The position numbers and the translations under genes were made by a program. From positions 11,099 through 35,645 of IMG/VR virus record IMGVR_UViG_3300029573_000021: 24,547 bases of DNA; one strand, 5' to 3'. This document shows, piece after piece, positions 3,197 through 21,140 of this stretch (the stretch's first letter is position 1; each line of letters starts with the position of its first letter). The DNA comes from a virus. The notes under the pieces are model-generated. The model had not been told where the DNA came from. It was given only the letters and a program-made list of their open reading frames with translations, and did no database searches.

Positions 3197-3646
3197 CTAT
3201 TTATTCCTGTCCTGCATGTTTTTCAAGATATGGACGCATTCCGCAATCCGGTCGTAAATTTGCCCCATCCACAGGAAAAACATTAACGAAAAGAATCCAG
3301 ATAAAAGACAGGCAATGGACAAACCGACCAATTCATTTGTTATACAAACAAAAAATCCGATGATTCCAGCAACAGCTACAAATCCCCCTATCATAGGGAA
3401 ATAATAACCTATAAGGGTTGTAAAGGAAGGCGTTTGACTACTTGATGCCTTTGTCTTCGGTACTATTTTTTTATGATATTTCGCCAATACCTTCTCAAAC
3501 TCTTCCCATTCTTGCCCCCCCTCTTGAAAAATCATGGTTTTCGCGTTGATCTTTTTCTGGTTAAAATAATCTTCCAGAACCTCAAGCGAAACGGGACCTT
3601 CCGTTTTCCCATCAGCGATCGCAATGTAGTACATGTCCTGATTCAT
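3197..3646 (-). CDS. GYF_2-like domain membrane protein (149 aa), moron between tape measure and tail tip
   Basis: ATG start. The N-terminus YYIAIADGKTEGPVSLEVLEDYF...IFQEGGQEWEEFEKV resembles the GYF_2/DUF4339 fold. The C-terminal half has two hydrophobic helices (YFPMIGGFVAVAGIIGFFVCI and LSIACLLSGFFSLMFFLWM). GC content is markedly lower than in the flanking genes. Confidence 0.65.
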   Translation of the reverse strand: MNQDMYYIAIADGKTEGPVSLEVLEDYFNQKKINAKTMIFQEGGQEWEEFEKVLAKYHKKIVPKTKASSSQTPSFTTLIGYYFPMIGGFVAVAGIIGFFVCITNELVGLSIACLLSGFFSLMFFLWMGQIYDRIAECVHILKNMQDRNK

Positions 3647-3680
3647 GCTCTTGTTCTGATACGTTGATTATCCAAAAATG

Positions 3681-5681
3681 TCAAGATACGAGCCAGCCTG
3701 CCACCATATTGAGACCGTTTTTCTGTGCCTGGGACTCTTTTTCGAGCCGTTGAACTCGTGCCTCCATGGATTTGATCGCGGCACGATATTGATTTCCGTC
3801 GGAAGATTCCTTTTCTACCAGGGCAATGATGCGTTTCACTAAATCAAGCGTTTGTGCATAGGTGATTTTATTCTCGCCTCTTGAGGACAGTTCCTGCATT
3901 AATTTTTTCGAGAGAACCTCCATTTCGTTCTCGGTGACCCTGTTATCCTTGAAAGCGTCTTTGATGTACCTGATGATGGCTCTATAGGCTTCATTAATAT
4001 TGGATTTTCGTTCCCGCGCTCTTCCGCTGACATCTCTATCGGGTCTTGACAAGGCGTCGGTCAACGATTTGCTGAATCCGGCCAGGTTAACGTTCTCGAT
4101 GATATTGTCACGTTTGTCCCTCTGGTTCTTGGTTCGCTCTTTAAGCCTGGAGATTTCCTTTTTCAGTTCACGGACTTCGTTTTCCCTTTCCCGTATCTGA
4201 TCTTTGATAGCGTTTTCATTCTCCTTCTGTGCCTGGACAATCCTTTTTTGCTGTTCCACAGCCTCGTTCCTCTCCCGCTGCGCTTCATCAATTTTTTCTT
4301 CGGAAGCATTTATTTTTCGGACTTCTTCAAGCTGTTGCGTGCTTGTAGTTAAAGATTTCTCCGCTTCCGTTTGATCTTCTATCGCCTTTTTAAGCGATTC
4401 CTGCGCCTGTTCTACCGCTTTGTCTCTGTTCTTATATGCTTCACGCAACGCATCATCCGTGCTGACGTCATATCCTGCATCGACAAGCGCGTTATCAGAA
4501 GCCGTCCTTTGTTTTCTTAAAGCGTTCAGGCGATCTAACTGCACCCTTCCATTTCCTGCGGCTAATACATCTTCCATGAATTTCGAGGCTGTTCTAATTT
4601 CTGGGAAGAATGAATTGAACTTGGAATCAAATATTCCCACTTTCTGTAGAAATGTATTGTTTAAAGCAGAAGTATCGCCTCCATTTTCTATTAATTGCTT
4701 AATCCACTCTCTCATATCATTAGATGAGATTCTTCCAAGTGTCGTCCATCCTCCTGCTTGTTCTGCCCCATTTCGGCTTACTTTAGCTATAGAAAGCAAG
4801 TTATCAAATATTTGTTTTTCCGCATTAAGGATTTCTCCATTGAGCTTTTCCCGTTCCTGGTAGGATAAAATATTCTGGTCCTGCAATCCTCCCAAACGTT
4901 CGCTGTTTCTGTTGGTGGCTTCGGTTTTTGACGCTAAATCCCTTTCCGCGTTAGATACATTGATTCTGGCGGATTCTTCCTGTTCTTGTCGATGCCGGGC
5001 ACGGGCTCGAAGTCTAATGTCTTCCTGTTTGCCTTCAAAGAACAAACGCGCGGAAAAACTTTCAGGATCGCCGAACGCTCCGCTATAGTAATCAGTTTCC
5101 AGTTTCAACAAATCCGCCTGATCCTGATTGTCCAGAATCTTTGATTGCAGGTCCAGCAAACGCTGCTGCTCCCGTACAGATTCTTTTAATGCCTGGGCTT
5201 CTTCTTTTCGGTTTCCTGCTATTTTTGCCGTCAAATCATTGGACGTCTTTAAAGCCGCCTCATTATTGAAGGACGCGACGATTTCCTGGGATTCCTTAAT
5301 GGCTTCTTTTTGTTGTTCAAGGGCCTTAGCGAGTTCTTTGGATTTTGCTTCCGTGTTTCCCATCCACTCGTAAAGCTTCGCGCCGGCTAAGACGGCAAGG
5401 GAGACAGCCCCGGCGAGCCCTGCCCCCCCTCCGAAGCCCATCACAAGCCCTGGAATATTATTCATGATACCCCTGATGCCGTATTGCAAGTCGTCAAAAA
5501 AGTAGGCAGCCTGCAAGGCTCCCTGCCCCATATTCTTCACGCTCCGGGTTGCCTGCTGGCTGTCTTTATCCAGCTGCTCCGTAGACTTGTTCAGGGAGTC
5601 AATCTTCTGCTTTGCTTCTTCTACGCCTTTTCCGTCCAGCGTGGACTTGAGCTTGATTTCGATTTCTTTCTTGGTAGCCAT
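3681..5681 (-). CDS. tail tape measure protein (666 aa)
   Basis: The protein is long and rich in K/E/Q coiled coil. It has a Gly-rich hydrophobic segment (PGLVMGFGGGAGLAGAVSLAVLAGA). It sits after a small chaperone-like ORF and before the tail-tip gene. Confidence 0.8.
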   Translation of the reverse strand: MATKKEIEIKLKSTLDGKGVEEAKQKIDSLNKSTEQLDKDSQQATRSVKNMGQGALQAAYFFDDLQYGIRGIMNNIPGLVMGFGGGAGLAGAVSLAVLAGAKLYEWMGNTEAKSKELAKALEQQKEAIKESQEIVASFNNEAALKTSNDLTAKIAGNRKEEAQALKESVREQQRLLDLQSKILDNQDQADLLKLETDYYSGAFGDPESFSARLFFEGKQEDIRLRARARHRQEQEESARINVSNAERDLASKTEATNRNSERLGGLQDQNILSYQEREKLNGEILNAEKQIFDNLLSIAKVSRNGAEQAGGWTTLGRISSNDMREWIKQLIENGGDTSALNNTFLQKVGIFDSKFNSFFPEIRTASKFMEDVLAAGNGRVQLDRLNALRKQRTASDNALVDAGYDVSTDDALREAYKNRDKAVEQAQESLKKAIEDQTEAEKSLTTSTQQLEEVRKINASEEKIDEAQRERNEAVEQQKRIVQAQKENENAIKDQIRERENEVRELKKEISRLKERTKNQRDKRDNIIENVNLAGFSKSLTDALSRPDRDVSGRARERKSNINEAYRAIIRYIKDAFKDNRVTENEMEVLSKKLMQELSSRGENKITYAQTLDLVKRIIALVEKESSDGNQYRAAIKSMEARVQRLEKESQAQKNGLNMVAGWLVS

Positions 5682-10776: not shown

Positions 10777-10793
10777 GGGAAAAAAGAGGATGC

Positions 10794-10812
10794 GGGGGCG
10801 CAGCGCGCCCCC
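10794..10812 (-). terminator. GC-rich stem-loop (8-bp stem GGGGGCGC/GCGCCCCC, 3-nt loop) followed on the minus strand by GCATCCTCTTTTTT; possible attenuator or weak terminator
   Basis: The inverted repeat is read directly. The T-run starts 8 nt after the stem, so this is not a textbook intrinsic terminator. It lies between the stop at 10825 and the AGG at 10776. Confidence 0.35.
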
Positions 10813-10824
10813 TGGTGAAACGCG

Positions 10825-13051: not shown

Positions 13052-14178
13052 TTGACGGGCAAAACGTAAGGGGTTGGCAGTTCCACGCGGATAGCTCCGG
13101 CGACGTCTTCCACTTTTTTGACGTGCCCGGAGGTAATGGGATAGGTGAATTCCCCCTCTTCCTTTGGGGAAACGGGGATATACTGGCGGGAGGACGCGGC
13201 GGCCACGTCTGCGGGCCGGGCGTACCAATCACCTTCCGGCTCGGAGAACAGGCGGTCCAGCAGGCGGTCCAGGTAGAGGGATGCCAGCGTTCCGGCCACC
13301 GCTCCCCCGGCTGCCGCCAGGCGGAAGGCATGGGCCTGGCGCAAGGGGATCTCTTCCGGGAAATCCCCGGACAGGAGTTCCGCCAGTTCCGCGTCCGTGT
13401 AAGGCCGCGTGCCGTTCGGATCGGTATAGACAAAGGTGGTATTGCCGTCGTTTTCGTTGTTGACGCGCAGGGCGTCTTTCAGGATGCCGCGGATCTTCTT
13501 CTTGTTGGCTTCCGTCACACCCTGGGCATTGCTTTCCAGCGTGGCGTTGAAGCTGGCCGGAGCGGGACGGACGCGGGAAACGTCCAGCCCGGCAGCGCGG
13601 GCTTCTTCGGCTCCGATGGGAGCAATGTTCATTCCGGACAGGTAGTCAAAGGGAGGGTAAGGCGTGCCGAACCGCGACAGACGGATCCAGATATCGGAGG
13701 ACGCCAGGGCATAGCCGACGGTCTCGCCCCGGATGAATCCGGAGGATACCGCTTCCGTGGCTTCTTCTTCCAGCCCGGCCCGGGCACGGTTCCAGCGTTC
13801 GGCCCAATAGCGCGGGTCTTCCCGCCCCTGGGAGCGGTAAAATTTGAAGGCGGCCGTGTCTTCGTCCTGCATCCAGTTATACCAGTTCCGGTAACCGTGC
13901 GCCATGGCCGCATTGGTTTCCATGACGACCTGGATGCGGAGCCAGGATGACAAATCCTGAATGCCGCCCTGCCCCGTTGCCGGCGGTCGGTAGCCCTGCT
14001 GGCGCAGGGTTTCGCGGATGGACTGCTGCGCCTCTTCATAGCTCAGGGCGCCGGAGGCGACCTTCCCCGCCTTTCCCTCAAAGTCGGACAGGATAACGCC
14101 GGGCTCCACGCCGGACACGAAAAAGGCGCGTTCGGCGTAGTCGTTGGCGATCATCTCCATCTGGGCGGCGGTCATCAT
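13042..14178 (-). CDS. minor head protein, Mu F / SPP1 gp7-like (378 aa)
   Basis: I chose the ATGATG at 14178, which overlaps the upstream TGA. The segment RIQVVMETNAAMAHGYRNW resembles the conserved MuF core (r.e.i.rTE...a.n.G). The upstream 73 aa of the ORF-track model overlap the neighbouring gene. Confidence 0.5.
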   Translation of the reverse strand: MMTAAQMEMIANDYAERAFFVSGVEPGVILSDFEGKAGKVASGALSYEEAQQSIRETLRQQGYRPPATGQGGIQDLSSWLRIQVVMETNAAMAHGYRNWYNWMQDEDTAAFKFYRSQGREDPRYWAERWNRARAGLEEEATEAVSSGFIRGETVGYALASSDIWIRLSRFGTPYPPFDYLSGMNIAPIGAEEARAAGLDVSRVRPAPASFNATLESNAQGVTEANKKKIRGILKDALRVNNENDGNTTFVYTDPNGTRPYTDAELAELLSGDFPEEIPLRQAHAFRLAAAGGAVAGTLASLYLDRLLDRLFSEPEGDWYARPADVAAASSRQYIPVSPKEEGEFTYPITSGHVKKVEDVAGAIRVELPTPYVLPVKWL

Positions 14179-14651
14179 CGGTAGGTGCTTCGCATGGGGT
14201 TGAACCAGGGGCGGCGCGTGTAGCGCGGCATCATGTAGGCGGGATCCGCGGGCGCGGAGCCGTCCACGCTTTCCGGCAGCATGTCCCCTTTGGCGTAGAG
14301 CGCCAGCATCGCGTCCGCCGATTCGGCGGCCTTCTGGCGCGTCTCGGTCAGGTTGAGCTGGTAGCGCAGGTAGAGCTGCCGGATGATCAGCGGCCATGCC
14401 AGGGACCGCATGCTTTGCGGAATGTCGTACATGCCGCTGTTCTGGAGCGATTGCCGCAGGGCGAGGTTGTTGGCCAGCGCCCCGCGGATGGTCATGCAGA
14501 CATCGTTGACCGCCTCCATCATGACATCCCGGTAGTCCAGGCTGCGCTGTTCCCCGGCTTTCACCAGGGCGTCGCGCTCCGCAGTGTTGAGGCCGAGGAG
14601 TCGGTCGGCTTCATCCGTAGTGATGGTGGACCAGGCGGGAAAGGCGGACAT
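14175..14651 (-). CDS. head-tail connector protein, Mu gp36 / DUF1320-like (158 aa)
   Basis: ATG start 21 nt after the capsid gene stop. Its size and its position directly after the major capsid gene fit this assignment. Similarity is judged by eye only. Confidence 0.5.
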   Translation of the reverse strand: MSAFPAWSTITTDEADRLLGLNTAERDALVKAGEQRSLDYRDVMMEAVNDVCMTIRGALANNLALRQSLQNSGMYDIPQSMRSLAWPLIIRQLYLRYQLNLTETRQKAAESADAMLALYAKGDMLPESVDGSAPADPAYMMPRYTRRPWFNPMRSTYR

Positions 14652-14672
14652 GATGGAGGCGGGTTGGGTGGG

Positions 14673-15596
14673 TTAAGCCGTGGCCGTCGCGTCGATGCGG
14701 ACGATGGCGCTGGGGTTCGTCAGCTTGGTCAGCGAGTAGACGCGGTTGGTTACCAGCGTCAAAGCGGGCGTCGGCTTGTATTCAGTGATGACTTCTCGGC
14801 GAAGCTTGCCGGAAAGACCGAAGGTCTTGACGGCGGAGGCGTCGAACTGCGTCGGGGAGTCTTCCTTGTACAGGACATAGACTTCGTTTTCCATGATGGT
14901 TTTCGCGTCGCCGGAAGCGTCGCGGTACGGCATGGAGGCGATGTAAATATCCCGGATGGGCCGGATCAGAGCCATGCGAAGAAGGTCTTCGTTGAACAGG
15001 CCGACGCTGTTGAAGGAAACCACCTGACGCGCGAGCGTGTTGGAGCGAAGCAGCTGCCATGCGTTGATGCCGAAGACAATCGTGTTCGGCATGTGTCCGG
15101 TTGCGGCGTTGATGGACAGGATCGCCTGGTCCAGATCCGCCAACGGGTTTTTCTGCTGGTTGGCCCAGTCACCCATCCCGGAAGCGGCCGGAAGCTGGCT
15201 CATCAGAAGCTTGGCGCGTTCGTATTCGTACGACGTCACAAACTGGGATTCGATGAGTTTGTATTCCGCCAGGGTGATGGCCTGCGCCTTTTCCCGGTTG
15301 ACGCCCAGCAAGGCGTCAGGGATGGGCAGCGTCAAGCCGTAGCCCTGAAGGGTGTCGGTTTCGTTTCTTCCGCGCAGGACGGTCTGGCGGGGAGGTTCGC
15401 CCGGTCCCACCTGGATGGGCTGGACGGTGAAGGCCGATTCCGTGTCCCAGACCTTGTACTGGAAATTCAGGTCATAGACCGGGACGATCGGAGCGATGCG
15501 GCTGATGATGGAGTTCTCTTCGGTGTTCCCGGACCCCGCGGAATAGGAGGTCAGGACATCGGTGAACTGAACGGCGGAGCAAAATGGAGTAGCCCT
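14673..15596 (-). CDS. major capsid protein, HK97 fold (lambda gpE / Mu gpT-like), 307 aa from AGG 15596 (ORF track gives GTG 15410)
   Basis: It follows the protease/scaffold and decoration genes. The 62 codons upstream of GTG 15410 read ATPFCSAVQFTDVLTSYSAGSGNTEENSIISRIAPIVPVYDLNFQYKVWDTESAFTVQPIQ with no ATG, GTG or TTG. AGG is the 10th codon after the in-frame TAA at 15626-15624. Confidence 0.75.
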   Translation of the reverse strand, partial: RATPFCSAVQFTDVLTSYSAGSGNTEENSIISRIAPIVPVYDLNFQYKVWDTESAFTVQPIQVGPGEPPRQTVLRGRNETDTLQGYGLTLPIPDALLGVNREKAQAITLAEYKLIESQFVTSYEYERAKLLMSQLPAASGMGDWANQQKNPLADLDQAILSINAATGHMPNTIVFGINAWQLLRSNTLARQVVSFNSVGLFNEDLLRMALIRPIRDIYIASMPYRDASGDAKTIMENEVYVLYKEDSPTQFDASAVKTFGLSGKLRREVITEYKPTPALTLVTNRVYSLTKLTNPSAIVRIDATATA

Positions 15597-15630
15597 TGTT
15601 CTTGGTCTTTCTGTTGGTTGGGGTTAATAG

Positions 15631-16062
15631 TTAGGCTGCGGCGACCTGGTAGGACGGAACGAAGCCGATTTCCACAAGGCCCTGTTCCCACTGGGCATGA
15701 ATAACGCGGGCATAGACGGTGTCGCCGCTGGCGGCGGCCTTCCATGTCCCGTTGGCCGTGATGGTGACGGGCGTTCCGGCGTTGATGGTTCCGGGCGTGT
15801 CGGATAGAGCCGCCTTGATCAGGCCGGCATACATTCCGACGAGCGCGGCGACGCAGGTTCCCTTGTTGGGCTGTCCCTGCAGGACGACGCCGAGCAGCTG
15901 CGTCTGCGTGGGGATGGCGGACAACGGAGTTCCGACAAATTCGGGGATGTCAGGATTGGCGGTCAGCGCCACGACGGTTCCTTCCTGTCCGCACAGGTCA
16001 ACGCCTTCCGGGGCGTTGAAATAGACGATGGCGCTTTTCTGGGTTACATTGAGTGATGGCAT
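15631..16062 (-). CDS. head decoration / capsid cement-like protein (143 aa)
   Basis: ATG start. The protein is Gly/Val/Ala-rich and beta-type. It sits between the scaffold/protease and capsid genes, as lambda D does before E, and resembles DUF2190-type proteins. Confidence 0.55.
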   Translation of the reverse strand: MPSLNVTQKSAIVYFNAPEGVDLCGQEGTVVALTANPDIPEFVGTPLSAIPTQTQLLGVVLQGQPNKGTCVAALVGMYAGLIKAALSDTPGTINAGTPVTITANGTWKAAASGDTVYARVIHAQWEQGLVEIGFVPSYQVAAA

Positions 16063-16083
16063 TGGTTTGATCAGGTTGAATAA

Positions 16084-17196
16084 TTAACGTTGGGCGGAGA
16101 CGATGAAGCCCTCTTCGGTCGCCTTCTGGCAGGCGTCATAGCGCTTCATGCCGTCCTTGATGAGTTCGTTCACGCGGTTGTTGAATCCGTCAATGGATTC
16201 CTTCTTGCGGAATGGGTCAGGGGGATTCAGAGTCGCGCGGCGGTTCAGAGGCGTCCTTTGCGGAAGCTTCTTCTGCTCCGGCTGCTCCTGTTTCTGCGGG
16301 CCCGCCTGGCGGTTGAGCGCGCGGATAAAGGCGTTCAGCGCGGCGGGGCTTTCCCGGAGAGAGTTTTTCAGCTCTTCCCGGCGTTCTTCCGTGAATTCCT
16401 CGCGTTCTTCCTCGTCCAGCGCGTTTTCGTACGTGCTGACGGCGTCGTCCACTTCGGCGTTCACGTGGTCTTTCTCACGCTTTTCCAGCGAGAGCAGTTC
16501 ATCAAGTCGTCCGAGGATCGCCCTGCTCATGTCGTCGGTGCCGTCAAATTCGACATCCAGCTTGTCAAGCAGGGAATCGAACAGGGCCCGCTGGGCCTTG
16601 TCCATTTCCTTGGACGGATATTCTCTATCGTCGTTTTCCATATTGGTGTTCTGGGTTGTTTCCCCCTCTTCGGGGCTTTTGGGTTCGCCCCCGGCCTCGT
16701 CGGAGGCGGGGGAAGTCTGTCGGTTGACCAGAGGCCGCTTTCCCTTGATGCGCGGCCGGTTGGTCAGAGCGAAGCCGGTCAGACGCGACGGGCGGTAGAC
16801 GCCGTCCGTCAAAGTCATGCCTTCGCCATATTCGGTGGATGATTGCGTGTATTCCTTGTCCTGCAGCATCTTCAGGCCGCGCGGCGTCCATTCGATGAAC
16901 CCGTAGAGTTCCAGCGTGCCGGAAGGGTCGCGGTAGGTGTCCAGCCTCTTGAGCCATCCGAGGGCCCGAGTATCGCGGGAAAGGTCGTGGCTCAGGTGGT
17001 CGCCGTCGATGAGCATGCCCGGGCCGTCAAAGGTGCGGGCGTTGAAGTCGTCCACCATGTCCCGGATCGCCTGCTCGTCGATGCGCAACACGGCGGGACC
17101 CTCGCCGTAGTCAACGTCATGGTCTCCGCTTTTCTCAACGTGGAACCAGCCGTTGGCGGGTCGGGACAGGTCATTGATTTGTTTCGTGCTGATCAT
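16084..17196 (-). CDS. prohead protease / scaffold fusion, Mu gpI-like (370 aa)
   Basis: ATG start. The N-terminus NGWFHVEKSGDH...IDGDH resembles Mu-like prophage protein I. The C-terminal half is acidic coiled coil and scaffold-like. Confidence 0.65.
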   Translation of the reverse strand: MISTKQINDLSRPANGWFHVEKSGDHDVDYGEGPAVLRIDEQAIRDMVDDFNARTFDGPGMLIDGDHLSHDLSRDTRALGWLKRLDTYRDPSGTLELYGFIEWTPRGLKMLQDKEYTQSSTEYGEGMTLTDGVYRPSRLTGFALTNRPRIKGKRPLVNRQTSPASDEAGGEPKSPEEGETTQNTNMENDDREYPSKEMDKAQRALFDSLLDKLDVEFDGTDDMSRAILGRLDELLSLEKREKDHVNAEVDDAVSTYENALDEEEREEFTEERREELKNSLRESPAALNAFIRALNRQAGPQKQEQPEQKKLPQRTPLNRRATLNPPDPFRKKESIDGFNNRVNELIKDGMKRYDACQKATEEGFIVSAQR

Positions 17197-18535
17197 CGGT
17201 AAATCCTTTCATGAGTCCGGCGTAAATCATTTGCTGAAGCTGTTCATAAGCATCGGGCGGAATGAGTGCTTTTTCCGGTTCCCTGTTGGCCGCCGCCGTC
17301 ACCGGAACGGGGTCCTGCGTGTCCTCGATCGACATGCCGATCTTTTCTTCAATCTCGGTCTTCTCGGGGCGGACGCCTCCGTCGGCAAGCGCGGCGATTT
17401 CCTCGGCTTTCTGCAGCGGGGTCTGGACGGTGTCAAAAGTGATGTGGAGGCGGGCCAGCGGTTCGCCGTCTCCCAGGACAAGCGGGCTGATGGCGGCGTT
17501 AAAAGCTTCGGCGACCTTGGAACAGACCGCGGAGACGACCGAATTCCAGCTGTCCGTGTGCGCTCCCCCGGCCAGCGTGCCGGATCCTGATTCATTCAGG
17601 ACGGTCAGAGTGCCGGCCATTACAAACCGCACCTGGTCCTTGTCGGACATGTTGATTCGGGATAGGAAATAGTTTTCGTTGATGTTGGAGGCTTTCAACG
17701 GTTCGGCGGCGCAGCCGGGAGGAAGCACAATGGAGGCTCCCGATTTGAGTTCCTCACAGGCCCGTTCCAGCGCGTCCATGACGGCGGCGCTCGCGTCCTT
17801 GGGCGCCGTGATGATGACCGGGGCGCTCCCGTAGCGGTCCATATGGTTGTCCCACGTAACTTTGGCGTGATTCCGCTCAAAAGAGGCGCGGGTTGCCGGA
17901 AAAAGAATGGGGTTCCGGTGCTCCATGACCACGAGCGTTTCTTCCTCTACGCTCTCGCCCGTGTCGACCCCGATGTAGCACTGGGGATTAAACTGCCATT
18001 CGTTCAGCTCTCCGGGCCGCACCCAGTATCGCTGCGGGATGAATTCAAAGCGGCGGCCCCAGGAATCTTCGATGTATTGGAGGTGGGCGTACCCGTAAAA
18101 CATAGCGGAGGCCAACTGCCCAAAGGCCTGTTGAAGTCCGGTGACGGAGTGATAGAATTCTTCCAGCGCGTTCTGCTGACGCTGGGCTTCCGGGCTGTCG
18201 TCCGCGGCGTCAATCTTCCATCCCTGCATGGAGACGCTTTCAATGAGCCGGGAATAGAGCATGCCCATCAAGCCGTCCGAGTAGATGACCTCGTCCCAAA
18301 TGAGCATTTGGCGGGCAAAGGCTCCACGCCGCGCTTCGTTCCGGGCGTCAATCAGGGTTTGCAGGTCGGCGCCCTGTAACGGGTCCCAATATTCGTACCA
18401 TTGAGGCTGGTTAGGCTTCCGGCTCTGTTCCGTCAACGCTCGCCGGGCCAGGTCCGTTTCAAGCTCCTTGATTCTGGTCTCCTGTTGGGCTACCAGCTTC
18501 GGGGCGTTGAGGATATTTCGGACGGCGTTAAACCT
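17171..18535 (-). CDS. portal protein (Mu gp29 / DUF935-like), 454 aa from AGG 18535 (ORF track gives TTG 18436)
   Basis: It lies downstream of the terminase. The 33 codons upstream of the TTG read FNAVRNILNAPKLVAQQETRIKELETDLARRA, a coiled-coil N-terminus with no ATG, GTG or TTG. The AGG at 18535 lies 23 nt downstream of the tRNA 3' end. Confidence 0.75.
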   Translation of the reverse strand, partial: RFNAVRNILNAPKLVAQQETRIKELETDLARRALTEQSRKPNQPQWYEYWDPLQGADLQTLIDARNEARRGAFARQMLIWDEVIYSDGLMGMLYSRLIESVSMQGWKIDAADDSPEAQRQQNALEEFYHSVTGLQQAFGQLASAMFYGYAHLQYIEDSWGRRFEFIPQRYWVRPGELNEWQFNPQCYIGVDTGESVEEETLVVMEHRNPILFPATRASFERNHAKVTWDNHMDRYGSAPVIITAPKDASAAVMDALERACEELKSGASIVLPPGCAAEPLKASNINENYFLSRINMSDKDQVRFVMAGTLTVLNESGSGTLAGGAHTDSWNSVVSAVCSKVAEAFNAAISPLVLGDGEPLARLHITFDTVQTPLQKAEEIAALADGGVRPEKTEIEEKIGMSIEDTQDPVPVTAAANREPEKALIPPDAYEQLQQMIYAGLMKGFTDDQHETNQ

Positions 18536-18558
18536 GCGGCGGGAGGAAAAGAAAAGGT

Positions 18559-18632
18559 TGGTTGCAGGGGGAGGAGTTGGACCTCCGACATGAGGACAGG
18601 AACCTCATATGATACCGTTTCACCACCCTGCG
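18559..18632 (-). tRNA. 74-nt tRNA, anticodon CCU (reads AGG), with initiator-tRNA-like acceptor stem and encoded CCA
   Basis: Hand-folded cloverleaf: CGCAGGG-UG-GUGA-AACGGUA-UCAU-A-UGAGG-UUCCUGU-CCUCA-UGUC-GGAGG-UCCAACU-CCUCC-CCCUGCA-A-CCA. Acceptor pairs 2-7 are Watson-Crick and 1:72 is a C/A mismatch. U8, G18G19, U33 and purine 37 are present. One deviation is C at position 55 of the T-loop. Confidence 0.6.
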
Positions 18633-18679
18633 ATTGAATATAAATCAACACATATAGATATGTTGATATATTGTCAACC
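18633..18679 (-). promoter_or_regulatory. AT-rich spacer with TTGACA hexamer and nested palindromes upstream of the tRNA
   Basis: On the minus strand, TTGACA lies at 18677-18672. Palindromes are ATCAACA...TGTTGAT (18644-18650 / 18661-18667) and ACATAT-AG-ATATGT (18650-18663). I could not fit a convincing -10 box at 17 nt, so promoter function is tentative. Confidence 0.3.
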
Positions 18680-20053
18680 CTAATATCTCCCGTAAGCGCG
18701 TTTTGATGACACGGGACGGGCGTACCAGGCTCCCAGCGTCCGCGCCAGTCCGCTGTTCCGGCGCGCGTGCCAGGCCATCACAAGGGCGTCGGCCCGGTCT
18801 GGGGAACGAACGCCCCGCTTTGCCATATCTTCTTTGCTTTCAATGCGGACGCGGCCTATTGCGTCGGTTTGGAGTCGTGGAGCAACCAGCTGCTCAATCG
18901 TATCCTCGTCAATGTCGAGGATGAGTTCTTTTTCTTCGATGGCGCGGGCGAGAGCCCGCCATGCTTGGGCGCGGAGGTTGACAAAGGCTTGTGTGTCATC
19001 TGCCGGGAAGCCTCCCCGGTAGGAGTGCACGGGGAAACCCTCAGCCCGGAAGTCGTCAATGATGGGAAGCCCCAGTCCGTCGCCGTCGGCAAAGATGCGG
19101 TCGGCAGAGATGCCGAGTTCGGCGGCCTTTCGGCGGAAACGTCCGCGCGCTCCTACAGTGTCTGGGTCGGCCCAGTGGTCGGCGATGAAAAAACGGTTGC
19201 CCTGTCCGGCCGCGAAGACATTCTCATCACCCCCGGCGGCGAAGTCAAAGCCGCCGCAGGTCTCCCCGGTGTCCAAAAAGGGAGGCGGGTTGTTGAGCAG
19301 CTCCATGATGGCGCGGCGGGAAATGACGGATTGCCCGTCGAGGTCGGTGAATTCGCCGAGGATGGCGGAGCGGTAGAAGGAGGACTGTTCGCCGTATTCT
19401 TTTTTCAGGCGCTCGGCCTTGCCCGGATCGTTGATTTCGATATGCGGGCAATCCTCGTATTTGACGCGGATTTTGTAATAGAGCGATGAATTTTTGTGAA
19501 AGCAGTCGTAAAAGGTGCCGGAATCGGCGCCAGGCGACGAGGTGATGAACGCGTGAAAGAGCGTGCAGCGGGAAACAGCGGTGAAGATGGAGTCGGGAAT
19601 GGTCTTGGCTTCGTCCAGGACGTAAAAGACGGGATCCACGTCGGGCGAGATTTTCGGGTGCCATCCTTCCGCGCGGCCGGCGTTGTCGGTCGAGAAGCCC
19701 ACGGCAAAACCTCCTTCAGGGGTACGGATTTCCGTCTTGTTGAACGTCCAGCCGTCAAAGAAAGGGTTGTCCATGTAGCGGCGGAGCGCGGGAAAGAGCT
19801 GCTTTTCCACCTGCATCCACGACGACGACGTGACCGGCACCTGCCCCCGCGGGAAGCAGGTAAGGAAGTACAGGATGGCCGGAGCGATGCAGTTGCTCGT
19901 CTTGCCGGATCCGTTGGGGGCGACCAGAGCCACGCTTTTCCCTCCCAGGGTCAGCTTGCCGAGGGACAACGCCTTGATGGCTTCCACCTGCCAGGGATAG
20001 GGATCCAGGCGGAGGATGTGGCGAAGGAAGAAGCTGACGGGGAGGTATGGCCT
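18680..20053 (-). CDS. terL: terminase large subunit, 457 aa from AGG 20053 (ORF track gives GTG 19987)
   Basis: It has Walker A (VAPNGSGKTS), Walker B (FYVLDEAK) and a C-terminal nuclease-like acidic motif. The 22 codons upstream of the GTG read PYLPVSFFLRHILRLDPYPWQ, which includes the conserved pWQ motif. They contain no ATG, GTG or TTG. The AGG lies 5 nt after the TerS stop. Confidence 0.85.
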   Translation of the reverse strand, partial: RPYLPVSFFLRHILRLDPYPWQVEAIKALSLGKLTLGGKSVALVAPNGSGKTSNCIAPAILYFLTCFPRGQVPVTSSSWMQVEKQLFPALRRYMDNPFFDGWTFNKTEIRTPEGGFAVGFSTDNAGRAEGWHPKISPDVDPVFYVLDEAKTIPDSIFTAVSRCTLFHAFITSSPGADSGTFYDCFHKNSSLYYKIRVKYEDCPHIEINDPGKAERLKKEYGEQSSFYRSAILGEFTDLDGQSVISRRAIMELLNNPPPFLDTGETCGGFDFAAGGDENVFAAGQGNRFFIADHWADPDTVGARGRFRRKAAELGISADRIFADGDGLGLPIIDDFRAEGFPVHSYRGGFPADDTQAFVNLRAQAWRALARAIEEKELILDIDEDTIEQLVAPRLQTDAIGRVRIESKEDMAKRGVRSPDRADALVMAWHARRNSGLARTLGAWYARPVSSKRAYGRY

Positions 20054-20058
20054 GATGT

Positions 20059-20574
20059 CTAGGGATTGAGCTTGCCAGCGATGGTTTCCAGCGCGGTTTT
20101 CTCGTCTTCCTGGAGCTGGGCCAGCTGCTCGGGGTCCAGGGTGATTTTCCGTTCCAGCGGCGCCCCGGGAACGCCGGCGACGTCCTGGCGGACCCGGTCT
20201 CCAAATTTTTCGGGAGCGAAACGGGCAGCGACTTTCAGCCGGGTTTCAATGGCGAGCTTCTTCGCGGCGACGGAGGCGGAGCCGCATTCCGGGTCAAGGG
20301 CGACTTTTGCGGCTTCATCGGCCAGTTCCTGACACGCGTCGAGCATAGCTTCCGACTGCGCTTCCCGCGAGCGTTGAATGAGTTGGGAAAAATCCGGCCT
20401 GGTTTGCCGCCAGTTCCAGACTGTCCAGACGTCCGGCATGTGATCGTCCGAGCAAATGGACTTCATCGTTTCCCCGTTGGCTAAACGGGAGGCTATCTCG
20501 TCGGCTAATGCCTCCGTATAGAGGCTGGGCCGTCCTATTTTCTTGTTGGCGGTAGGTGATTGCTTCTTTTTCCT
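20059..20574 (-). CDS. terS: terminase small subunit, 171 aa from AGG 20574 (ORF track gives ATG 20466)
   Basis: The 36 codons upstream of the ATG read KKKQSPTANKKIGRPSLYTEALADEIASRLANGET, the typical TerS N-terminal HTH (GRPs.Yt.e.a.eIc.rla.G). An in-frame TAG lies at 20583-20581, only 3 codons before the AGG. There is no ATG, GTG or TTG in between. Confidence 0.8.
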   Translation of the reverse strand, partial: RKKKQSPTANKKIGRPSLYTEALADEIASRLANGETMKSICSDDHMPDVWTVWNWRQTRPDFSQLIQRSREAQSEAMLDACQELADEAAKVALDPECGSASVAAKKLAIETRLKVAARFAPEKFGDRVRQDVAGVPGAPLERKITLDPEQLAQLQEDEKTALETIAGKLNP

Positions 20575-20582
20575 GCAGGTCT

Positions 20583-20611
20583 ACTCTAGAGGACAGTAGC
20601 TAGCAAATCAA
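20583..20611 (-). promoter_or_regulatory. putative late-operon promoter, TTGATT-17 nt-TAGAGT
   Basis: On the minus strand the -35 is at 20611-20606 and the -10 at 20588-20583. The -10 ends 8 nt before the AGG at 20574, which predicts a leaderless or near-leaderless TerS mRNA. This is a sigma70-type match by eye only, and the host promoter grammar is unknown. Confidence 0.3.
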
Positions 20612-20643
20612 GCACTCTGTTTGTTCTTTCCTTTCTGGGCCCA

Positions 20644-20672
20644 TTGACAAATCTGACCCTCTCACATATACA
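20644..20672 (+). promoter_or_regulatory. putative divergent promoter, TTGACA-17 nt-TATACA
   Basis: The -35 is at 20644-20649 and the -10 at 20667-20672. The GTG at 20679 lies 6 nt after the -10, which predicts a leaderless transcript for the zinc-ribbon gene. Confidence 0.35.
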
Positions 20673-20678
20673 GATTTT

Positions 20679-21044
20679 GTGAAAAAGTGTCCTATATGCG
20701 GCAAGGATGTTCCGCCGCGCTACGGAGCGCGGGAAAGCGTATACTGCTCCCGCGCTTGCCTCAAGGCACACTATGACGCCGCCTGGGAAACTATCACCTG
20801 CCCCGTGTGCGGAAAGGAATTCCGCGCTAAAAAACTCTTTCGGCGGAAACATTGCTCTTATCCTTGCGCAAATGCGGACATGGCAGCGGCGCCGGATGGC
20901 GGGTACTTGCCGCCCCTGCCGTCCCGAAGGAATAAAAAAGGGCAGCCCCGAAGAACCGCCCTTTTTAAGGGAATGAGCGTTTCCGCTCGTGCTGATCTTG
21001 TGATCGTTTTAATCCACAGCCCCGGAGGGCTGACGTGTTCCTAG
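20679..21044 (+). CDS. tandem zinc-ribbon protein (two CPxCGK...(Y/H)CSxxC units, YacG/zf-FCS-like), 121 aa
   Basis: GTG start. The two units are CPICGKDVPPRYGARESVYCSRACLKAHYDAAW and CPVCGKEFRAKKLFRRKHCSYPC. The C-terminal 50 aa look poorly coding. They contain an A-tract/hairpin/T-tract at 20935-20966. Confidence 0.55.
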   Translation: MKKCPICGKDVPPRYGARESVYCSRACLKAHYDAAWETITCPVCGKEFRAKKLFRRKHCSYPCANADMAAAPDGGYLPPLPSRRNKKGQPRRTALFKGMSVSARADLVIVLIHSPGGLTCS

Positions 21045-21140
21045 AAAGAACAAATTACTTCTCTCATATTCTGCGCCAGGCCGCAAGCAAAAACGGAATG
21101 ACAACTTTTTTCACCTTTTTTCATTTTTTCTCTTGCATTC

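Follow-up and report, generated by a model that had tools for sequence, protein, structure and literature searches.

Conserved promoter spacing predicts a leaderless terS message beginning with AGG in a putative temperate phage of Akkermansia muciniphila

Leaderless mRNAs are a known class that includes phage-regulator and host messages, among them lambda cI transcribed from PRM and the products of about 10% of Akkermansia muciniphila start sites (PMC4782308). They have a sigma-70 −10 element 6 to 9 nt before the start codon, no 5′ untranslated region, no Shine-Dalgarno (SD) sequence and an unstructured 5′ coding end, and the known bacterial messages begin with AUG, less often with GUG or UUG. 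Recognition of the 5′-terminal start codon of such a message by the ribosome has had a single direct test, made in Escherichia coli, which suggested that AUG itself is needed and not pairing with the initiator tRNA. According to the accounts of Van Etten and Janssen (1998) in two later papers, an anticodon-matched (amber) initiator tRNA in E. coli rescued initiation from a non-AUG codon if the mRNA had a leader, and failed to do so on leaderless mRNA (PMC8459731, PMC9031893). For Caulobacter, one of these papers gives a figure of about one half for the leaderless translation left after each added 5′ nucleotide (PMC8459731). Non-AUG first codons occur in mammalian mitochondrial leaderless mRNAs, as these are described in PMC11775629. 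A further related arrangement is the divergent control region of temperate phages (PR/PRM type), in which two outward-facing sigma-70 promoters lie within about 100 bp between opposed genes.

The phage locus described here combines traits of these systems. A sigma-70-type −10 element lies 8 nt before the proposed start codon of terS, and a message without 5′ untranslated region or SD and with an unstructured 5′ coding end is predicted, as in the known class; the difference is that its first codon would be a conserved AGG. A leaderless mRNA with a conserved non-canonical first codon is what would be new, the leaderless class itself being known, and the case is of interest because it conflicts with the E. 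coli precedent. The phage family appears to keep AGG at most 2 to 3 nt from the terS 5′ end through many promoter replacements, together with a matching initiator-type tRNA. If start-site mapping confirms this, the locus would be a natural system for testing whether anticodon pairing suffices, and would show ribosome recruitment to the head of an operon with a private start codon.

The window analysed is a stretch of 24,547 nucleotides, bases 11099-35645 of a 35.6-kb virus record in IMG/VR (IMGVR_UViG_3300029573_000021). By direct reading, 104 bp (20575..20678) separate terS on the minus strand from a zinc-ribbon gene on the plus strand, and this gap is probably a divergent promoter region. 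The features of the region are as follows.

20059..20574, minus strand: terS, small terminase subunit, 171 aa if the start is AGG 20574
20582..20575, minus strand: discriminator ‘agacctgc’ of the terS promoter, followed by AGG 20574..20572
20588..20583, minus strand: −10 hexamer TAGAGT of the terS promoter, 17-nt spacer from the −35, by direct reading
20611..20606, minus strand: −35 hexamer TTGATT of the terS (packaging/late operon) promoter, by direct reading
20644..20649, plus strand: −35 hexamer TTGACA of the putative zinc-ribbon promoter, by direct reading
20667..20672, plus strand: −10-like hexamer TATACA of the same promoter after a 17-nt spacer, followed by ‘gatttt’ and GTG 20679
20679..21044, plus strand: zinc-ribbon protein gene, GTG start, two CPxCGK...C motifs
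20935..20966, both strands: GC-rich hairpin with a 14-bp stem and T-runs on both strands, from a terminator scan, in the 3′ part of the zinc-ribbon ORF

TerS was matched to Pfam Sf6_terminase (E = 1e-28, residues 19-130) and to PHROG 1482 (E = 1e-30). Beyond terS, the minus strand carries terL, a tRNA with anticodon CCU, a Mu-type portal, a Mu-I-like prohead protease and further genes; the terS stop lies 5 nt ahead of the AGG of terL, and the downstream genes are tightly packed. To the right on the plus strand, the zinc-ribbon gene is followed by an acidic 107-aa gene and a 434-aa multi-HTH regulator, and farther right DnaC-like and replication-initiator genes run leftward. Unlike a PR/PRM-type switch, the gap divides a packaging operon from a small accessory island, not a repressor from cro, and the operator search in the gap region found no operator-like palindromes or repeats. 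The search yielded a weak 15-nt direct repeat (73% identity) and a 9-nt inverted pair 92 nt apart, both judged to be due to chance, and Rfam at a permissive threshold gave no match in 20400-21100. The phage appears to be temperate, and its host is A. muciniphila, since prophage copies occur in an A. muciniphila metagenome-assembled genome (MAG) and a host CRISPR spacer matches the phage; the two copies in the MAG encode TerS proteins 87% and 61% identical to that of the window. Ten N's at genome 11089-11098, directly before window position 1, mark a scaffold join or a masked stretch in the apparent integrase region.

The first-pass annotation had placed two back-to-back promoters in the gap, and its observation was confirmed: both hexamer pairs, the 17-nt spacers and the gaps of 8 and 6 nt to AGG and GTG were right at every coordinate. 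The terS pair agrees with the consensus at 8 of 12 positions, and its hexamers are spaced within the 16-18 bp of sigma-70-type promoters. The zinc-ribbon pair has the same spacing, though its −10, TATACA, lacks the highly conserved final T. A position-weight sigma-70 scan with an E. coli-based matrix covered both strands of the whole 35.6-kb phage, and among the 36 hits of at least 8.5 bits the terS pair ranked fourth (11.1 bits) and the zinc-ribbon pair 17th (9.3 bits). When the 150 nt ahead of the gene were shuffled 300 times, one shuffle came up to the terS score. Both pairs were absent from the list of a stricter consensus promoter scan, which likewise missed the promoters in L002, and on the window sequence alone promoter strength is middling.

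The comparative evidence came from 45 terS loci, 43 from a TerS scan of viral contigs and two from a genome collection. The 100 nt upstream of terS fell into 10 clusters with pairwise identity of approximately 55-70% between clusters, and an eleventh family was added by protein look-up. When 150 nt of upstream sequence was scored per family (75 nt for L074), the best sigma-70-like match ended 6, 8 or 9 nt before AGG in 10 of the 11 families, and in the eleventh the AGG-proximal match was the tied second best. With about 124 possible positions in each, the chance of such placement is approximately 0.03 per family. The families are partly related, five or six sharing the −35 and an upstream (A/G)ACAAACA motif; even if six independent families are counted, the promoter placement is very unlikely to have arisen by chance.

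The elements themselves are conserved across these families. In most others the −35 at the same place is TTGAYT or TTGACx, with only TTCCCC in the island family of L046, and the −10 at the same distance is TAAACT, TAGATT, TATGGT, TATAAT, TATGAT, TATCTT, TAAAAT or TATTAT; all family −10 hexamers, TAGAGT included, preserve T-A...T. In the cluster of the window (13 loci), TTGATT and TAGAGT are invariant and the spacer is variable. Within clusters, substitutions and a 1-nt indel (spacer 17 to 18) are confined to spacer and discriminator, and the hexamers are fixed or altered at tolerated positions only. The upstream neighbour of terS is a mosaic, being the divergent zinc-ribbon gene, another divergent gene, a co-directional gene or an integrase. 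Because promoter and AGG are present with every kind of neighbour, the promoter-to-AGG module seems to have been retained through repeated replacement of its surroundings. The one more distant relative scored, the ATG-start Sf6-type terS of another Akkermansiaceae (L084), showed no promoter-proximal start, and judged from this upstream region the leaderless geometry looks specific to this phage group.

The (A/G)ACAAACA motif precedes the terS −35 by 4-6 nt in the window (20612-20630) and in L004, L013, L014, L037 and L074. In L014 and L037, where TTGATT on the opposite strand is the zinc-ribbon −35, the motif directly adjoins that hexamer. Possible roles for the motif are those of an UP-like element or a regulator site.

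Several of these observations bear on whether the promoter is used at all. We consider it improbable that terS is expressed mainly by read-through from the replication or early operon, or from an activator-dependent late promoter, with the hexamers weak or incidental. The rejection of both promoters by the stricter scan and the poor −35 of the island-type family (TTCCCC) point that way, as does the fact that the late genes of a temperate phage have to be silent in the lysogen, for which a plain sigma-70 promoter gives no explanation. In the L002 family, moreover, the upstream gene is co-directional and the terminator scan found none, so that AGG could lie within a read-through transcript in that family. 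In the window, by contrast, the nearest leftward genes are 2.3 kb off, behind three opposed genes and the strong hairpin at 20935-20966, which would stop leftward replication-gene transcripts short of terS and shield it from read-through, and the hexamers and their spacing are conserved over unrelated sequences.

The promoter grammar of the host agrees with these elements. In Cappable-seq data from the mouse gut microbiome, A. muciniphila start sites show a −35 element and TATAAT with Y−1/R+1, and 10% of 886 confident start sites fall exactly at annotated start codons, compared with 0.4% in E. coli (PMC4782308). The objection that the host might use another promoter grammar, such as the Bacteroidetes type, is removed by this −35/−10 pattern. 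For calibration, 800 kb of the A. muciniphila MAG was examined at the start codons of ORFs of at least 100 codons, from crude ORF calls. Start codons 6-9 nt after −10-like hexamers were found 53 times against 22.6 expected (P = 4e-8), with a sharp onset from 1 case at gap 5 to 14 cases at gap 6. Among these, 45 of 53 were ATG and 29 of 53 had C at −1; over the host genes, C stands at −1 in 46%. The gaps of terS (8 nt, ‘c AGG’) and of the zinc-ribbon gene (6 nt) both lie within the 6-9-nt window of the host. Position-weight scan, conservation and host grammar thus all support two divergent sigma-70-type promoters as originally placed.

The phage carries further examples of this layout. Its top-scoring promoter, TTGACT-17-TATGTT at genome 9684-9719 on the minus strand (1379-1414 nt before the window start), ends 6 nt before the ATG of an early RHH-type gene of 71 aa. 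This ATG-first gene shares the leaderless geometry of terS; its message is predicted to be leaderless, and it likely encodes a lytic/lysogeny regulator. In the virion operon, TTGACA-17-TATCAG (window 3646-3684, minus strand) ends 9 nt before ATG 3646 of a 149-aa protein with no family match and is a possible internal leaderless promoter. Altogether, a gene start follows 6-9 nt after 4 of the 36 promoter-like hits, where a rough, uncomputed estimate that assumes about 50 gene starts gives approximately 0.1 by chance.

That the AGG starts lack a recognisable SD sequence had also been pointed out. The statement is true, but phage ATG-start genes lack SD sequences as well, and host genes show no SD enrichment (66/372 versus 67/372 in a control window), so the missing SD says nothing special about the AGG starts.

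The position of the terS 5′ end was predicted from the same geometry. The start site would be G 20576, the seventh nucleotide after the −10 and preceded by T, or A 20574, the ninth and preceded by C, which gives a leader of 0 to 2-3 nt. The 8-nt gap counts against a zero leader, as it puts the textbook start site at G 20576 and leaves a leader of 2 nt. In the families with a 6-nt gap, the A of AGG is itself the seventh nucleotide, and all families with an 8-9-nt gap read ‘..GC AGG’. In the minimum-energy fold, the predicted terS message has no base pairs in its first 24 nt. The comparative and host evidence gives good support to the promoters and to the predicted near-zero terS leader.

These details also suit the view that the promoter is real and that transcription starts at G 20576 or earlier, so that terS has a short leader and is translated by an ordinary SD-independent 30S route, the closeness of promoter and gene reflecting compact mosaic boundaries. 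The seventh nucleotide is a G after T, ‘GC AGG’ recurs in all families with 8-9-nt gaps, host genes in general lack SD sequences and must therefore have an SD-independent route, and leaderless starts other than AUG are disfavoured by the E. coli data. On the other hand, 2-3 nt of leader would be too short to enter the 30S mRNA channel on the upstream side of the P site, and such a message would functionally belong to the leaderless class. If leader length were free, it should vary over the 11 families, yet the gap is 6-9 nt throughout, and host genes show the same sharp window. On balance, a short leader of this kind appears unlikely.

The terS open frame was examined for other starts. It opens after an in-frame TAG two codons ahead of AGG and contains no ATG, GTG or TTG before codon 38; the first ATG is residue 37 (ATG 20466), within the HTH. 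All 45 loci share AGG-AAA without change. Between AGG and the GRPS motif lies a stretch of 11, 12 or 13 codons that changes only by whole codons and is always in frame and always basic. Position 3 of the PHROG 1482 profile aligns to TerS residue 7 and the Pfam match begins at residue 19, both upstream of the first ATG. In other Akkermansiaceae, TerS homologues begin at the equivalent position with Met, followed by a basic (Lys/Arg-rich) stretch and then the HTH. Judged from the reach of the profiles, the constancy of AGG-AAA, the preserved frame up to GRPS and the Met with basic stretch in the homologues, terS cannot start later than AGG 20574.

Initiation at the near-cognate ATA 20538 by the normal initiator tRNA, or at ATG 20466, with AGG..AAA as a leader of at least 36 nt from the same promoter, is therefore very improbable. 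In its favour, NCBI starts TerS of a related Akkermansia genome (P0002/L078) at ATA, and two relatives (P0003, P0012) have an ATG directly ahead of GRPS. The loci of P0003 and P0012, however, retain the upstream AGG-AAA and the promoter, the AGG-to-GRPS stretch behaves as coding sequence in keeping its frame and basic character, and the PHROG profile extends to residue 7. A start at ATG 20466 would lose half of the HTH. ATA 20538 was discarded as a start for lack of conservation, the codon being CCG, ACG, ACA or CCT in most families.

Existing annotation offers no good terS start. The ATA start is the one that NCBI gives at position 3001 in L078/L079 (GCA_937925135.1, GCA_001580195.1), and other gene callers shorten TerS to 135 aa from the internal ATG. 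The AGG start bears on gene calling in Akkermansia phages, where terS is now truncated or given an ATA start. In the families of L004 and L025, a longer transcript could make use of an in-frame ATG that precedes AGG by 14-17 codons; by a rough, uncomputed estimate, such ATGs in 2 of 11 families are at about chance level.

For the zinc-ribbon gene, the evidence points more weakly in the same direction as for terS. The 6-nt gap makes G 20679 the seventh nucleotide after the −10, with T before it, so the geometry allows a 0-nt leader, and the predicted message is free of base pairs over its first 8 nt when folded to minimum energy. Its GTG is one of the first codons known from leaderless messages (AUG, GUG or UUG), which the AGG of terS is not. 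The first Cys of the protein is residue 4, so no later start is possible. Homologues begin MKKC, MKQC or MKRC with an ATG start codon, and zinc-finger/YacG-like Pfam matches were found below threshold only. In all four upstream families, the best −35/−10 match ends 6, 9, 9 or 4 (or 7) nt before the GTG or ATG; in the relatives, CAAACT lies 9 nt, or TATAGT/AAATAT 4-7 nt, ahead of the ATG. The leaderless geometry proposed at the outset is thus conserved in 10 of 11 upstream families for terS and in four families for the zinc-ribbon gene.

The reader proposed for the AGG start is encoded in the same operon, and the features concerned are as follows.

18559..18632, minus strand: tRNA, anticodon CCU, proposed AGG-start reader, by ARAGORN and Rfam
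18649..18677, minus strand: candidate separate tRNA promoter, TTGACA right after the terL stop, 17 nt, TATGTG (weak −10)

The tRNA(CCU), found at the same place in related phage loci, carries hallmarks of an initiator: a C1:A72 mismatch, flagged as a non-standard pair, and G:C pairs at the base of the anticodon stem, 2 of 3 in the window copy and 3 of 3 in most relatives. The AGG codon and the CAU anticodon mismatch at the middle position. In mitochondria, near-cognate AUA and AUU are read by a single tRNA-Met with a modified wobble base, and mitochondria are not known to use a separate initiator with a new anticodon that reads a change at the middle position. A separate tRNA(CCU) promoter is possible. 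The candidate ends approximately 16 nt before tRNA position 1; TTGACA after the terL stop is kept in nearly all relatives and the sequence after it varies, with TAT(A/G)TG, a weak −10, following at 17 nt.

Taken together, these features favour, with moderate confidence, a host sigma-70-type promoter that produces a leaderless terS message starting with AGG and read by the phage tRNA(CCU), along with a GTG-first zinc-ribbon message. TTGATT-17-TAGAGT would head the packaging and virion operon and be driven by the sigma-70-type polymerase of the host, with the A of AGG 20574, or a position no more than 2-3 nt ahead of it, as the first nucleotide of the leftward transcript. Since a near-zero leader has no room for a ribosome-binding leader, terS would have to be started in the leaderless way, a ribosome carrying the initiator tRNA engaging the 5′-terminal codon. 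The match for AGG would be the initiator-like tRNA(CCU) of the phage itself, whose gene lies 2 kb farther down the operon, and because the genes behind terS are closely packed they would be reachable by ribosomes already on the message. On the other strand, TTGACA-17-TATACA would give the GTG-first message for the small zinc-ribbon protein. We infer the exact 5′ ends, the 70S leaderless pathway and the decoding of AGG by tRNA(CCU) from this arrangement.

The proposed decoding has a described counterpart and a negative precedent in one organism, E. coli. Like the engineered amber initiator tRNAs, in the accounts given of them (PMC8459731, PMC9031893), tRNA(CCU) has an anticodon matched to a non-AUG start; those accounts have the engineered E. 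coli system working on leadered and not on leaderless messages, whereas here a natural phage appears to keep a leaderless arrangement in an SD-independent host. The conserved geometry suggests that matched-initiator pairing may suffice in such a host. A literature search combining Akkermansia, prophage and initiator tRNA found no paper. The interpretation in the first-pass annotation was supported in part. Its premise that leaderless initiation depends almost entirely on codon-anticodon pairing is opposed to what the same two accounts state for E. coli (PMC8459731, PMC9031893). Its suggestion that the first late gene is especially reliant on tRNA(CCU) is likewise not supported, as every AGG start should, from standard base pairing, be equally dependent on it.

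It is also conceivable, though quite unlikely, that the leaderless AGG start is the late-gene switch itself, with tRNA feedback and helper sensing by satellites. The terS promoter, an ordinary host promoter, might then fire even in the lysogen, and the terS message could not be translated until tRNA(CCU) was made from its own TTGACA promoter in the palindrome-rich spacer. Transcription polarity would end the untranslated message before the tRNA gene; once some tRNA was present, terS would be translated, transcription would continue and more tRNA would be made, as a positive feedback. Satellite-like islands with a terS homologue and the promoter-to-AGG module and without the tRNA would sense a helper through its tRNA. 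If this is true, the rule drawn from E. coli, by which a leaderless message requires AUG itself, would have a natural counter-example.

An element of this kind was seen in the A. muciniphila MAG. An island of approximately 12 kb beside tRNA-Tyr (L046 1-8480 and L053 ~14000-19991; G001:C4, ~122-134 kb) carries an integrase, a terS homologue (61% identity), a Toprim primase, an ERCC4 nuclease and two large unknown proteins, with no portal or capsid among the ORFs scanned, and from this gene content it looks like a phage satellite. Its terS retains TAGATT-9-AGG-AAA and lacks a canonical start ahead of the HTH. As tRNA(CCU) is missing from the island, production of its TerS might depend on a helper phage as the source of the tRNA.

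A related integrase-terS element (L075/L076 4406-7167, L077 565-3326) directly follows a prophage terL-tRNA(CCU), as though the tRNA gene of the phage itself had been the integration site. It has a second tRNA(CCU) with the same ‘...GATATTAGG(A)TTGACA’ ahead of it, and its terS has an ATG before GRPS as well as the upstream AGG.

The tRNA gene is also represented in host immunity. An A. muciniphila MAG CRISPR array on the minus strand of L048 (~1500-1535; G001:C11:88417-88451), with the repeat GTTTCAATCCACGCACTCGTGAGAGTGCGAC, holds a spacer that is 100% identical to nt 8-42 of the commonest phage tRNA(CCU) variant, from related loci, which indicates that the host targets the private initiator tRNA gene of the phage. 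The window copy differs from the spacer-matched variant in the anticodon stem. Elsewhere in the window (10777-10815, minus strand), a terminator-like element stands directly ahead of another proposed AGG start: a GC-rich hairpin followed by a T-run (GGGGGCGCGCTGCGCCCCC...TTTTTT) stops 3 nt short of AGG 10776, at which a 557-aa gene is proposed to begin.
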